A stretch of DNA of 13,866 nt. Origin: Candidatus Eiseniibacteriota bacterium (GTDB taxonomy: Bacteria > Eisenbacteria > RBG-16-71-46). This document shows, piece after piece, positions 9,001-11,924 of the stretch; the first letter of the stretch is position 1; each line of letters begins with the position of its first letter. Where the stretch lies: the NCBI GenBank assembly GCA_031370785.1, contig JANMQY010000020.1, positions 1 to 13,866 of the forward strand. Reading direction: 5' to 3'. The position numbers are program-made.

Positions 9001-11924
9001 TTGCGCTCGGTCGCGCGACCGAGGATCCGCGCGAGGCGCGGCGTCACCTGTACCTGGCTGGCGGGCTGTTCTCCGAGCTGGGAAGCGCCCACTGGCTCGA
9101 ACAGTCCGAGTCCGAGCTGCAGCGCCTGCTCGGTCCGACGGACCCCGCGCCGATGCGTCCCGCATCACTGCTCGGCCGGCGCCACCGTGCGCCGAGCCTG
9201 GTGGCCTGCTCGGGCGCGATGTACCGGGTCGAGAGCCTGGCGCGCCGGGCGGCGATGACCGAGCTGTCGGTGCTGATCACCGGCGAAACCGGGACCGGCA
9301 AGGAGCTGGTGGCGCGCACCATTCACTCGCTGTCGACGCGCGCCCAGCGGCCGTTCCTCGCGATCAACTGCGGCGCGCTGCGCGCAGACCTCGCGCTCTC
9401 TCAGCTGTTCGGGCACCGCAAGGGCGCGTTCACCGGGGCGCACGCCGAGGGCATCGGTCTGGTCGAGGCCGCGCACGGCGGCACGCTGTTCCTCGACGAG
9501 GTCGGAGAGCTTCCGCACGACGTCCAGGTGACGCTGCTGCGCTTCCTCGAGAGCGGCGAATACCTGCGCCTCGGCGAGACCCAGGTGCGGCGCGCGGACG
9601 TGCGCATGATCGCGGCCACCAACCGCGAGCTGCGCGGGGACGCCGGTGAGCGCGTGTTCCGCCGCGACCTGCTGTTCCGCCTGAACGAGATCGAGATCCT
9701 GGTGCCGACGCTCGCCGATCGGCTCGACGACGTGGTGCCGCTGGCGCGCCACTTCCTCGCGTTTTACGGCGGGATCGATGGCCCGCGCCTCGCCGCCGAC
9801 GCCGAGGCCGTGCTCACCTCCTATGCGTGGCCCGGTAACGTTCGAGAGCTCGAGAACGTCATGAAGCGCGTGGCCGCTCTGCACTCGGGCGACAGCCTGG
9901 TGGACGCAGATGCCCTGCTGCCGTTCCTGGCGCATCCGCCGCTGCGCACCAACGGCGACGTGGCGCTGGCGAGCGACGAGCGAAGCGCCATCCTCTCGGC
10001 GTACCGCGAGGCGCACGGCAACAAGAGCCGGGTAGCCGAGCTGCTGGGAGTGAGCCGCAAGACGCTCTATGCGCGCATCCGCCGGCTCAACATCGATCTG
10101 CACTAGCCGCGCGAACCCAGGCACATCCAGTCGACGGGCGGAAAGTTCCTCCGCCCGTTTTCTTTTTCCGCGCGCGCGTCCGATCGAGCCGGCGAGGAGT
10201 GTCACCCTGTCACCCTGCGGGTAACACTGTCACACCTTGCGCTGGCCCTGCGCGTTGCCGCATCTCGCCGGGCGCGCGAGTGTTACCTGCGATGGTGACA
10301 ACCCCCTGACGAGATGCCGCGCCCGTCGGCCTGCGCGAACCCGCCGACACGCGATTCGACCAATGAAATCAGTGGTCTGCAGCACATCGCGAGCGCCATT
10401 CATTCGCCGCCATCGCGCTGGCACGCCGCCTGCTCTAGTGACGATCCGGATACGGGAATCGGCTGACTGCGACAGGGAAGGCCGATTCAGATGGTCGAGG
10501 TTCTCCTGGGGGAGGAGGACCTTGAAACTCGGGCGATCAAGGCGTAGATCGGCACCTCCATCGGCGCCTCTGGTCGCCCGAGAGAATTTTCAGGCTGAGT
10601 CAAGGACTGAAGTGCACGGCATGCCGTGCGGGGCTCGTACCCTCACAGTCAGTCGAGTTTGGAATCGGAAACGGGCAGTCGTCTTGCCCCAGCTCGTGCC
10701 TCCGGCAGCGTCGAGAAGCGTCGGCGCATCAATGCGAAAGGGGTGAGAGCAACTCCAGTTCATCAGCCAGTGCAGTCTGGTGAGTAGTGGTTCGCAAACC
10801 AAAAAAACCAAATACGCCCGGTCAACGAAGCCGGGAGCACAGTGGGGTTCATCCCGGTCACTCCCTGTGCTCTCGGGAGAAGGCAGCCAGAGTTCCGAGC
10901 CCGATGGGCTCACGAATCTCTTGGCTGCCTTTTCAATTGATGAGCGCGACCGGGGCGAACCCTGATAACCTGTGGCCACCGTCGCCCCCTGGACCCGGTT
11001 ACGAAGGAGCCACCATGAAATCCGCTCGCCCTGTCGCCAAGTTCGCCGCACTGCTGGTATCGGTCACGCTGGTCTATGCTGCGTTCACCGCCTGCTCCAA
11101 GAAGGCCGAGCCGCCCGCGGACACGAGCGGATCATCGACAACGACCACAACCACGACCACGACGCCTCCGTCTTCCGACGCGACCCCGCCCGCGGGCACG
11201 GGCACATCGGGCACGTCCGGCTCGACCGATGCGAGCGCGGTCACCGCGAATCTTGAGCTGGGCGAGCAGGTATACAAGCAGCGCTGCGCGCTCTGCCACG
11301 GTCCGGACGGCCATGGCAATGGCCCCGGCGCGGCGGCGCTCAATCCCAAGCCGAGGAATTACCACGACGCCAAGTACATGAGCACGAAGACCGACGCGGA
11401 GCTGCTCGCCGTCATCCACAACGGCAAGGGCGCGATGCCAGCGTGGAAGGCTATCCTCAACGAGACGCAGATGAAGTCGGTGCTGATGTACGAGAGGACG
11501 TTCGCGGGCAAGCCTTGAGTGGATCACGCTTCTGGCATCGCCAGACCCGCGCCGCGGGGGTGACCCGCATCGGGGCAGGCCCGTATCGGGGCAGCCCGCA
11601 TCGGGACCCGCGTCCTGGGGTCGGTTGCGCGGGGAGTGAGTCGAGCGCGGCCGGAGTGGCGCGGAAGGCGGGCCGTGCGGGGGCGCCGATCTTGACACCC
11701 CAGTGAGCGATGACTATCTTGCCGGGGCCCTGATTCACACGGCTCACGGTCCGCTGGCGTAGCTCAATTGGTAGAGCATCTCATTTGTAATGAGGTGGTT
11801 GGGGGTTCGAGTCCCTTCGCCAGCTATGATTGCCCGCTGTCGGCCGCCCCGTCGCGGCACTCGAACGGTAGGAGGGGTGCCCGAGCGGCCAAAGGGAGCA
11901 GACTGTAAATCTGCCGGCTTATGC

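Follow-up and report, generated by a model that had tools for sequence, protein, structure and literature searches.

Several regulatory RNAs of bacteria are transcribed under sigma-54 control from genes that lie beside the gene of their own activator. CrcZ of Pseudomonas is described as following directly on the sigma-54 activator gene cbrB, on the same strand, with a −24/−12 promoter and a terminator of its own and a length of several hundred nucleotides (PMC5113210). NrsZ of Pseudomonas aeruginosa, from the ntrC-PA5126 gap, is reported as an RpoN- and activator-dependent sRNA adjoining the activator gene (PMC4253122). Pxr of Myxococcus xanthus is placed in the gap after the sigma-54-dependent regulator gene nla19, where a sigma-54 promoter is predicted, and is a multi-stem-loop RNA confined to one lineage (PMC5568312); its binding targets are given as still unknown in PMC11928866. 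In E. coli, GlmY, associated with GlrK/GlrR, is presented as a sigma-54-dependent sRNA that acts by protein sequestration (PMC4152352). In Vibrio, sigma-54 and LuxO are described as driving the Qrr sRNAs. These RNAs are about 100 nt long and Hfq-dependent, and they feed back on luxO mRNA; the glmY gene, for its part, adjoins the genes of its activator system.

Here we describe a locus of this layout in the window, a 13,866-nucleotide stretch of a Candidatus Eiseniibacteriota genome. The initial annotation had marked a structured element of about 200 nt, starting at 10728 in the gap between a sigma-54 activator gene and a cytochrome c gene, and read it either as an attenuator of the latter or as a separate sRNA. 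The locus, as we read it from its sequence, very probably encodes an independent sigma-54-dependent non-coding RNA. It was found in two families of Candidatus Eisenbacteria, an uncultured phylum of soil and sediment; among the papers listed by our literature search, none dealt with its RNA regulation.

Results

Conserved Element and Its Distribution

The conserved element lies where it had been annotated, at 10735-10934 on the plus strand, it is non-coding and structured, and each of the features listed for it was located in the window as follows:

10736-10750, plus strand: GAAAGGGGTGAGAGC
10740-10750, plus strand: conserved Shine-Dalgarno-like block GGGGTGAGAGC, GGAGGTGA in family f3 (alignments)
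10801-10807, plus strand: A7 tract
10801-10830, plus strand: A7 tract with the invariant stretch ..AAATACGCCCGGTCAACGAAG, predicted single-stranded, 17 invariant columns in 77 sequences
10831-10876, plus strand: covarying 16-pair hairpin, arms 10831-10847 and 10861-10876
10878-10934, plus strand: terminator GAAGGCAGCC ... GGCTGCCTTTTC, terminator-like in 68 of 76 loci
11015-11518, plus strand: cytochrome c gene, lipoprotein-like, a neighbour outside the RNA unit (Pfam and locus comparison)

The part that is both invariant and predicted to be single-stranded reads ACGCCCGGUCAACGAAG. The invariant ACGCCCGGTCAACGAAG occupies 10814-10830 and contains the first CCCGGTCA at 10817-10824; the 13-nt hairpin loop (10848-10860) repeats CCCGGTCA at 10853-10860. 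The element carries twin CCCGGUCA motifs, one in the invariant single strand and one in the hairpin loop 36 nt further on. The hairpin is followed by TCGGGAGAAGGCAGCC and then by the terminator hairpin, which ends in TTTTC at 10934, 81 nt 5′ of the cytochrome c ATG at 11015, in agreement with the terminator proposed earlier.

The helix had been put at 14 bp; its covariation is borne out, and its length is now 16 pairs. Across 77 sequences (76 distinct) it is paired in 88.1% of cells, against 35-60% when slid, 13 of its pairs change on both sides, and compensatory cells number 107 against 21.6 ± 6.6 in shuffles (0/500). A small CCCGG/CCGGG hairpin beside the invariant stretch, the only local alternative partner, was dropped in favour of the long helix because it lacks covariation: its 3′ arm varies while its 5′ arm is invariant, and two of its pairs fail to form in 20-28 of the 76 sequences. 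The preference for the plus strand, modest in the initial annotation, is strengthened by a promoter and a terminator that both point this way; moreover, many G-U pairs of the 16-pair helix would become A-C on the opposite strand. No conserved frame runs through the invariant stretch, the minimum open span across the six frames being 9-39 nt, and no frame stays open through it in all sequences, as expected from the ORF-free gap first described. The lack of an Rfam match holds as well: a search of 10000-11200 at E ≤ 10 returned three chance-level matches of 13-16 bits, against gathering scores of 50-90.

A BLASTN search with the 908-bp gap, which had pointed to conservation in relatives, matched 32 of 41 genomes; by family, matches were found in 22 of 24 genomes of f1, 9 of 10 of f3, none of three of f2 and none of three from three other families. 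Our own covariance model detected the RNA in 58 of 151 genomes of the phylum (51 of 59 in f1 plus the genome of the window, 6 of 6 in f3 and 0 of 85 in 15 other families), with one match per genome in 57 of the 58 and two in the other, so that both the restriction to two families and the single copy stand. A search of 185,579 species, each represented by one genome, places the exact pattern ACGCCCGGTCAACGAAG-N15-30-CCCGGT at 74 loci; 53 of their titles name Eisenbacteria or Eiseniibacteriota, 16 carry no phylum name and 5 bear other taxon labels.

Promoter and Transcript

With about 200 nt and a start at 10728, the element as annotated falls short of the full RNA, since a sigma-54 promoter, enhancer-like sites and conserved blocks were found further 5′; the 5′ two thirds of the RNA had been missed. 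A longer predicted transcript, of about 490 nt, has the 200-base element as its 3′ domain and is laid out as follows:

10208-10226, no strand assigned: enhancer-like palindrome 1, TGTCACC-N5-GGTAACA
10281-10300, no strand assigned: enhancer-like palindrome 2, TGTTACC-N6-GGTGACA
10419-10434, plus strand: sigma-54 −24/−12 promoter TGGCACgccgcCTGCT, the strict motif being found here in 77 of the 78 distinct loci
10445-10934, plus strand: whole predicted RNA, about 490 nt, its 5′ end placed from the promoter and its 3′ end from the terminator
10448-10456, plus strand: 5′ motif GGATACGGG, proposed seed for the activator operon leader (motif counts in 78 loci)
10499-10521, plus strand: hairpin GGTTCTCC / GGAGGACC with the conserved loop TGGGGGA (alignment A2, read by eye)
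10528-10582, plus strand: long hairpin with outer helix CTCGGGCGA / TCGCCCGAG, in family f1 only (covariation count)
10630-10644, plus strand: conserved block GGGGCTCGTACCCTC (alignments)

We used a −24/−12 consensus of the type TGGCAC-N5-TTGCW, as quoted in PMC4253122. All 104 loci (78 distinct) have one match, 184-457 nt upstream of the invariant stretch, and one other strict match occurs in 442,230 nt. The genome also contains rpoN. In 60 of 78 loci the promoter is preceded by enhancer-like palindromes (by two in 33), which keep two fixed distances from it; none occur elsewhere in 197,715 nt of these loci, and the two in the window are the only TGTYAC-N5-11-GTRACA matches in the whole genome (3.44 Mb). 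We infer that they are enhancer sites for the neighbouring activator.

The predicted length is about 490 nt in this genome and about 300 nt in the second family, with a median of 443 nt. In three studies, contigs assembled from RNA libraries extend over 10496-10817, 10660-10819 and 10665-10898, and the formerly annotated start at 10728 is spanned by one of these contigs; the source strains are relatives (85-96% alike), and such libraries can contain DNA. Libraries X17, X18 and X20 leave both sides of the RNA (the activator gene, 10107-10495 and the region past 10898) uncovered, and absence from contigs is no evidence. Library X17 also has weak pieces on the cytochrome c gene, and X11 a single 11.8-kb contig across everything.

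Further conserved blocks lie within 10447-10644. The 5′ motif takes the form GGATACGG in 59 of the 78 loci, GGGTACGG in 8, GGGCACGG in one and other forms in 10; its pairing with the block at 10630-10644 was considered and dropped, the motif variants being uncompensated there. The nine pairs of the long hairpin, counted by hand, are paired in 79.6% of cells against 36-52% when slid, with 43 compensatory cells against 21.2 ± 5.0 (0/500), and its apical loop presents the anti-Shine-Dalgarno-like GCACCTCCATC (10552-10562). A 5-pair alternative between 10575-10579 and 10740-10744 possibly competes with it. RNAalifold predicted just 10 pairs over the whole 5′ domain, for which the alignment is too gappy.

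Activator Operon

Upstream of the RNA, the following features were mapped:

7155-7184, plus strand: putative sigma-70-type promoter TTGACC-17 nt-TAGCCT of the small protein and activator operon (sequence reading)
7224-7236, plus strand: leader box CTCACCCGTATCC, consensus UCACCCCGUAUCC (complement search in relatives)
7334-7663, plus strand: small ORF of 109 aa just 5′ of the activator gene, with a signal-peptide-like N-terminus and no Pfam family
7704-10106, plus strand: sigma-54 activator (bEBP) with N-terminal TPR repeats, AAA+ sigma-54 interaction domain and Fis-type HTH (Pfam)
10133-10169, plus strand: terminator-like hairpin with a T run, 3′ of the activator gene

In 18 relatives the leader box is preceded, at a distance of about 40 nt, by TAGCCT itself (13) or by a near form of it (5; by eye), and tblastn matches to the small ORF cover query residues 1 to at least 98 in 14 of 20 relatives. 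Pfam detects no receiver domain in the activator, which scores under the cut-off of every named NCBIfam equivalog. The RNA is tied to this gene: the gene lies upstream of the RNA, on the same strand, in all 78 distinct loci, and together with the RNA's own terminator (68 of 76 loci) this upholds the reading as a separate sRNA. Close matches to the N-terminal part of the activator (E ≤ 1e-84) occur in the 31 of 40 relatives that have the RNA; no such match was found in f2, G015 or G023, all of which are without it. The activators of the two RNA-bearing families share about 40% identity in this part. One genome, G036, departs from this co-occurrence: its match is partial and lies where a contig ends, inside the activator gene, so that the missing RNA is uninformative. 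Model R1 gave nothing above chance downstream of distant activator homologues in G038 and G039, nor in G036.

Discussion

Our observations fit together in one explanation, which we consider probable as a whole: the element would form the 3′ domain of a regulatory RNA that is independent, depends on sigma-54 and has both a feedback step and a twin-seed step. The TPR-type activator would bind the two upstream palindromes and open the −24/−12 promoter. The RNA would end at its own terminator as a transcript separate from the genes downstream, as the conserved terminator and the separate promoters suggest. Its single-stranded 5′ end, GGAUACGGG, would pair with the leader box of the operon encoding a small, predicted secreted protein and the activator, and this contact, to which the complementarity co-varying between both sites points, would close a feedback loop of either sign. 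The invariant stretch and the hairpin loop, each displaying CCCGGUCA, would most likely serve as a duplicated seed for mRNAs with GACCGGG-like sites.

The last of these steps is put forward tentatively: that the twin motifs are mRNA seeds is plausible, if somewhat short of probable. The longest complements to the invariant stretch in the genome, among those of at least 11 nt, reach 12-13 nt, about what chance would give, and GACCGGG is not enriched near gene starts (48 occurrences against 57 for its reverse complement), a weak test in view of crude gene calls that used the first start codon and a GC3 filter. An Hfq gene was not found in this genome, which is rated 100% complete; csrA is present.

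Alternatively, the RNA might sequester a protein, in the manner of CsrB/RsmZ with CsrA, CrcZ with Hfq/Crc or GlmY with RapZ, the two CCCGGUCA sites binding a dimeric RNA-binding protein that is thereby titrated. We regard this as unlikely, although several observations would suit it: 17 bases are invariant in 77 sequences from two families whose activators are only about 40% identical N-terminally, the motif is duplicated with both copies unpaired, the complement and GACCGGG searches produced no mRNA target, and csrA is at hand. Known sponges, however, have many copies of their motif and this RNA has two; the motif lacks GGA, which has a median of 11 occurrences in the RNA against 10.1 expected (z 0.1, 61 RNAs); there is one A-rich run instead of several AANAANAA motifs, with no Hfq gene found; and no candidate protein is linked to the locus. 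Two specific assignments were rejected along the way, namely a CsrA sponge of the CsrB/RsmZ type (GGA not enriched, none in the invariant motifs) and membership of the CrcZ/CrcY family (no Rfam match, a single A-rich run, Hfq gene not found). A bifunctional RNA, with a 5′ seed that closes the feedback on the activator operon and a 3′ domain that decoys an RNA-binding regulator through its CCCGGUCA sites, is a rather doubtful proposition; if it held, the TPR activator would control a whole post-transcriptional regulon via one RNA, in a phylum lacking Hfq.

Regarding the 5′ end, we lean slightly towards feedback pairing of the RNA with the leader. The 5′ motif of the RNA has its exact reverse complement at 7228-7236 in the leader box, and in 23 of 28 genomes the leader holds an exact complement of at least 8 nt (8-13 nt) at this position. 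The two sites change together through three matched motif/box states: most of f1 has GGAUACGG/CCGUAUCC, G007 and four genomes of f3 have GGGUACGG/CCGUACCC, and G004 has GGGCACGG/CCGUGCCC. This complementarity of GGAUACGGG to the leader of the activator operon suggests a feedback loop. Against this reading, the leader box lies about 100 nt 5′ of the start codon of the small ORF, away from a ribosome-binding site. For three RNA motifs, the duplex energies predicted with the leader are unexceptional relative to random segments of this 68% G+C genome; the 5′ motif ranks in the top fifth of 600 random segments in only 13 of 21 genomes, the window itself standing at 0.41.

These energies would also suit a different origin of the complementarity, in which motif and box are one duplex DNA site in opposite orientations, recognised by a common DNA-binding regulator, and the true partners of the RNA lie elsewhere entirely. 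On duplex DNA a site and its reverse complement are one and the same, and both copies lie near a transcription start (about +3 and about +35). We find this improbable nonetheless. The specificity of the protein would have to shift with each of the three matched states; the one G-U in the motif/leader pairing (G016, by eye) is neutral in RNA and a mismatch for a DNA site; and the motif stands at the very 5′ end of the RNA, with a hairpin immediately after it. Seeds of sRNAs usually sit just there.

The genes downstream of the RNA are not constant in relatives. Cytochrome c follows in 36 of the 68 loci with enough downstream DNA, in both families; among the 32 others, 24 have a tRNA Thr-Tyr-Gly-Thr cluster and 8 other genes. 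Few Pfam families are found among the ORFs downstream of loci without cytochrome c, most having none, because tRNA genes occupy that stretch. A −10-like box 4-9 nt 5′ of the cytochrome c ATG (25 of 39 loci) implies that this gene has its own promoter and a leaderless mRNA. A cis-acting attenuator or leader of cytochrome c or of the tRNA-tuf cluster, with a terminator switched by a ligand or a protein, is thus very improbable: the RNA does share the strand of cytochrome c just upstream of it, and its structured domain directly precedes the terminator, but no constant position before one conserved downstream gene or operon was found, the linkage is with the upstream activator, and no pairing that competes with the terminator was seen by eye, short of a systematic search, the lone local alternative hairpin being without covariation.

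Comparison with Known Systems

The independent RNA that we favour differs from each of its closest counterparts. CrcZ has no sequence or structure match to it (Rfam), binds Hfq/Crc through several AAnAAnAA motifs where we see one A-rich run and find no Hfq gene, and answers to a two-component response regulator rather than a TPR protein. NrsZ is described as being cut into short modules, about 40 and 140 nt long, that resemble one another; our RNA has no such repeats and no sequence match to it. Pxr, with 108 nt and three stem-loops, belongs to another phylum and likewise has no sequence match. GlmY shows no homology and mimics a sister sRNA, whereas none was found here (single copy in 57 of 58 genomes). 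The Qrr/LuxO system has the logic proposed here, a sigma-54 activator driving an sRNA that pairs with the activator's own mRNA; in our case a small ORF stands in front of the activator gene, and the complementary box lies far 5′ of that ORF's start codon.

What can be read from sequence is a complete module: a receiver-less sensor-activator, two unique enhancer sites, a sigma-54 promoter, a long structured RNA and a co-varying leader contact. The RNA forms a new, well-aligned family of 78 distinct sequences with strong covariation that could enter Rfam; it reveals no new principle, and the feedback pairing is its one testable prediction. With the Qrr/luxO type it shares a conserved, co-varying complementarity between sRNA and activator transcript (23 of 28 genomes), the duplex energies of which are unexceptional. 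With sigma-54-dependent sRNAs beside an activator it shares the promoter, the adjacent activator gene, enhancer sites at which activator binding is presumed, and a non-coding predicted transcript with a terminator. It is, on these grounds, a new family of a known kind, the sigma-54-dependent sRNA beside its activator, as in CrcZ, NrsZ, Pxr and Qrr.

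The RNA gene and its predicted activator

Between the genes for a sigma-54 activator and a c-type cytochrome, the window carries, judged from its sequence, all the parts of an enhancer-dependent sigma-54 gene with an RNA product. The features on which this reading draws are listed here.

Features of the RNA locus and its flanks
7155-7184, + strand: promoter-like TTGACC-17-TAGCCT preceding the small ORF
7224-7236, + strand: conserved leader box, consensus UCACCCCGUAUCC, some 40 nt 3′ of the -10 box
7334-7663, + strand: small ORF of 109 aa with a signal-peptide-like start, directly upstream of the activator gene
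7704-10106, + strand: TPR/sigma-54 activator, flanking the RNA upstream
10208-10226 and 10281-10300: enhancer-like palindromes TGTYACC-N5-7-GGTRACA, upstream of the promoter
10419-10434, + strand: sigma-54 promoter TGGCACgccgcCTGCT (-24/-12 match)
10499-10521, + strand: hairpin with loop UGGGGGA, conserved in family f1
10528-10536 / 10574-10582, + strand: outer helix of a long 5′ hairpin, covarying in f1
10630-10644, + strand: block GGGGCUCGUACCCUC, conserved in f1
10736-10750, + strand: GAAAGGGGTGAGAGC
10801-10807, + strand: A7 run
10814-10830, + strand: invariant block ACGCCCGGTCAACGAAG
10831-10847 / 10861-10876, + strand: arms of a long hairpin whose 13-nt loop (10848-10860) holds the second copy of CCCGGTCA
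to 10934, + strand: TCGGGAGAAGGCAGCC, then a terminator hairpin ending in TTTTC, 3′ of the long hairpin
11015-11518, + strand: c-type cytochrome, flanking the RNA downstream
11753-12458: tRNA-Thr(UGU), Tyr, Gly(UCC) and Thr(GGU), after the cytochrome c gene and before tuf
12597-13865: tuf (EF-Tu), after the tRNA cluster

A single -24/-12 match lies 184-457 nt ahead of the invariant block in each locus. In 77 of the 78 distinct loci the strict form TGGCAY-N5-NTGCN stands there, and both strands of all loci together (442,230 nt) contain just one further strict match. Of the 78 loci, 60 have one palindrome or more and 33 have two, and their distances from the promoter fall into two fixed classes; no further palindromes occur within 197,715 nt of the loci, and the two in the window are the only matches in the whole 3.44-Mb genome, which also encodes RpoN. 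The activator gene lies upstream on the same strand in all 78 distinct loci and is followed by a terminator-like site of its own. Its product has TPR repeats in place of a receiver domain and reaches the cut-off of no named NCBIfam equivalog. Among 40 relatives, close matches to the N-terminal TPR part (E ≤ 1e-84) were found in the 31 RNA-bearing genomes; one genome (G036) matches in part, at the end of a contig, and two f1 genomes (G015, G023) and three f2 genomes have distant paralogues only and no RNA. In a genome of family f5 (G039), a more distant homologue of 827 aa, whose N-terminal part is 34% identical, precedes a sigma-54 promoter TGGCACGGCCTATGCT and a unit of about 125 nt with a hairpin and a T run (locus L107, 2656-2800, for promoter and unit); a uvrA-like gene comes next. 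The 3′ domain model does not match this unit, which could be a sister RNA, either diverged or unrelated.

A conserved CGGATACGGG at 10447-10456 lies immediately 3′ of the expected start. From the promoter position and this 5′ motif, the RNA would therefore span approximately 10445 to 10934, i.e., 490 nt in the window (median 443 nt over 61 loci; about 300 nt in family f3). The initial annotation had placed a conserved RNA at 10728..10931; it was right about a conserved structured stretch, which is the 3′ domain, but did not include the promoter or the RNA's 5′ two thirds.

Distribution

BLASTN with the 908-bp gap between the two genes matched 32/41 genomes (f1, the family of the window's genome, 22/24; f3 9/10; f2 0/3; three other families 0/3), and the matches share query bases 629-787. 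When 185,579 species, each represented by one genome, were searched for exact matches to the invariant block plus the loop motif, 74 loci emerged, 53 of them titled Candidatus Eisenbacteria or Eiseniibacteriota, 16 without a phylum name and 5 with other taxon labels. Both searches pooled gave 104 loci (78 distinct), and a covariance model trained on 77 of the pooled loci matched 58 of 151 sampled genomes of the phylum: 51/59 in f1 plus the window's own genome, 6/6 in f3 and 0/85 in 15 other families. The restriction to two families proposed earlier thus holds for the genomes searched. All matched genomes have a single copy except one (G012), with copies on contig 6 (L095) and contig 3 (L016/L063), each preceded by an activator gene. 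The N-terminal part of its second activator matches in three pieces, one with an in-frame TGA, and this copy may be broken.

Structure of the RNA

The block, A7 run, hairpin, looped repeat and terminator described in the initial annotation are all present where it had put them. The helix of the 3′ domain was tested on 77 sequences (76 distinct) and has 16 pairs, CCGGGAG-CACAG-(bulge)-GGGG with CUCC-CUGUG-CUCUCGG, which leaves the second CCCGGUCA in the loop. Its cells are paired in 88.1% of cases vs. 35-60% with the 3′ side slid, both sides have changed in 13 pairs, and compensatory cells number 107 vs. 21.6 ± 6.6 in shuffles (0/500). G-U pairs, which would be A-C on the opposite strand, are numerous and, together with the promoter and terminator, assign the RNA to the + strand. 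A small hairpin between the invariant CCCGG and the next CCGGG was rejected: its 3′ arm varies, the invariant arm never compensates, and two of its pairs are unpaired in 20-28 of 76 sequences. The most plausible state of the 17 invariant bases is thus single-stranded. No conserved reading frame passes through the invariant block (minimum open span 9-39 nt in each of six frames), and a search of Rfam at E ≤ 10 returned nothing beyond chance-level matches.

In the 5′ part, the outer helix is paired in 79.6% of cells vs. 36-52% when slid, with 43 compensatory cells vs. 21.2 ± 5.0 (0/500), and the apical loop of this hairpin presents the anti-Shine-Dalgarno-like GCACCUCCAUC. CGCCC at 10575-10579 can pair either with a local GGGCG or with GGGGU (10740-10744) of the conserved GGGGUGAG block; the latter pairing is 93.2% paired with one covarying pair. 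Since the two pairings are mutually exclusive, a conformational switch is possible.

Predicted feedback on the activator operon

The last nine bases of the leader box, in the 5′ leader of the transcript encoding the small ORF and the activator, are the exact reverse complement of the RNA 5′ motif GGAUACGGG. An exact complement of 8-13 nt occurs at the same leader place in 23/28 genomes (17/21 plus 6/7), and both sides co-vary: GGAUACGG with CCGUAUCC in most of f1, GGGUACGG with CCGUACCC in G007 and the f3 genomes G028, G031, G032 and G035, and GGGCACGG with CCGUGCCC in G004, while a site change in G016, read by eye, yields G-U. The best reading is a predicted RNA-RNA feedback on the operon leader; feedback on an activator's mRNA is known from Qrr/LuxO. 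Against it, the duplex energies are unexceptional for a genome of 68% G+C, and the leader box lies about 100 nt from the start codon. Alternatively, box and motif could be one DNA site in reversed orientation, since a reverse complement is the identical site turned round. A 12-nt GAATCGGCTGAC in the leader (7260-7271) is directly repeated at 10457-10468, right after the 5′ motif; it was not seen in one other genome compared by eye (L111 leader, L002 RNA start) and is probably due to chance.

For the twin motifs, no partner was identified: the longest complements of the invariant stretch in the whole genome were 12-13 nt, i.e., chance-level, and GACCGGG was not enriched near gene starts, as crudely called. 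CCGGGC near the start of the operon leader, a potential contact for GCCCGG, was seen by eye in about 10 of 18 leaders, a weak signal. A protein partner is a fair rival: CsrA is encoded in the genome, but GGA is not enriched in the RNA, there is only one A-rich run, and no Hfq gene was found in the genome.

The small-ORF product, which matches no Pfam family, has a Gly/Pro-rich middle and a hydrophobic end that looks amphipathic. It may be a partner or signal of the activator; tblastn matches cover query residues 1 to 98 or further in 14/20 relatives. Elsewhere in the window, an ORF with mechanosensitive-channel domains (4781-5716) extends across the start annotated for the cysteinyl-tRNA synthetase ORF (5416-7104), and the true cysS start is probably later than 5416.

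Downstream genes

A cis-acting attenuator of the cytochrome c gene, one of two roles considered initially, is rejected: this gene comes next in only 36 of the 68 distinct loci whose downstream sequence extends 800 nt or more, the RNA terminator is conserved in 68/76 loci (in the window, 81 nt separate its end at 10934 from the ATG at 11015), and in 25/39 loci a -10-like box of the GTGCTAGCGT type stops 4-9 nt short of the in-frame ATG. The other role, a separate RNA, is supported. Where cytochrome c is missing, 24/32 loci lead directly into the same Thr-Tyr-Gly-Thr tRNA cluster, which with EF-Tu we take to be a tufB-type arrangement, and the remaining 8 into assorted genes; cytochrome c thus resembles an optional insertion separating the RNA from the tRNA-tuf cluster.

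In the 25 loci with the box, the ATG lacks a detected Shine-Dalgarno sequence (e.g., in the roughly 30 nt ahead of it in L012, L014, L046 and L055); 7/39 loci, the window included, have a Shine-Dalgarno-like sequence instead, and 7/39 have neither. This suggests that cytochrome c, where the box is present, has its own promoter and a leaderless mRNA, and suggests a TAGCNT-type -10 consensus in the phylum. The same box occurs at the activator operon promoter (7179-7184).

Expression

Public runs contain near-identical sequence. RNA-library contigs from three studies, compared with 9900-11600, cover 10496-10817 (a 331-nt contig, spanning the initially annotated start at 10728), 10660-10819 and 10665-10898, and short high-depth pieces cover 10794-10867. 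A fourth run yielded a single 11.8-kb contig across the whole region and is uninformative. These contigs are a weak hint of expression, because they show neither ends nor strand and DNA may be present in RNA libraries.

Comparison with known systems

The module is clean, complete and testable and comes from an unstudied phylum; it adds no new principle, and we infer the mechanism of the RNA in part. An activator gene, enhancer, sigma-54 promoter and terminated RNA also follow one another in CrcZ after cbrB (PMC5113210), Pxr after nla19 (PMC5568312) and NrsZ beside ntrC (PMC4253122). The RNA of the window shares this layout but neither sequence nor fold (Rfam, E ≤ 10), and it is longer than Pxr or NrsZ. 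A sigma-54 RNA beside its own activator is a known layout, and the RNA found here is a new family within it.
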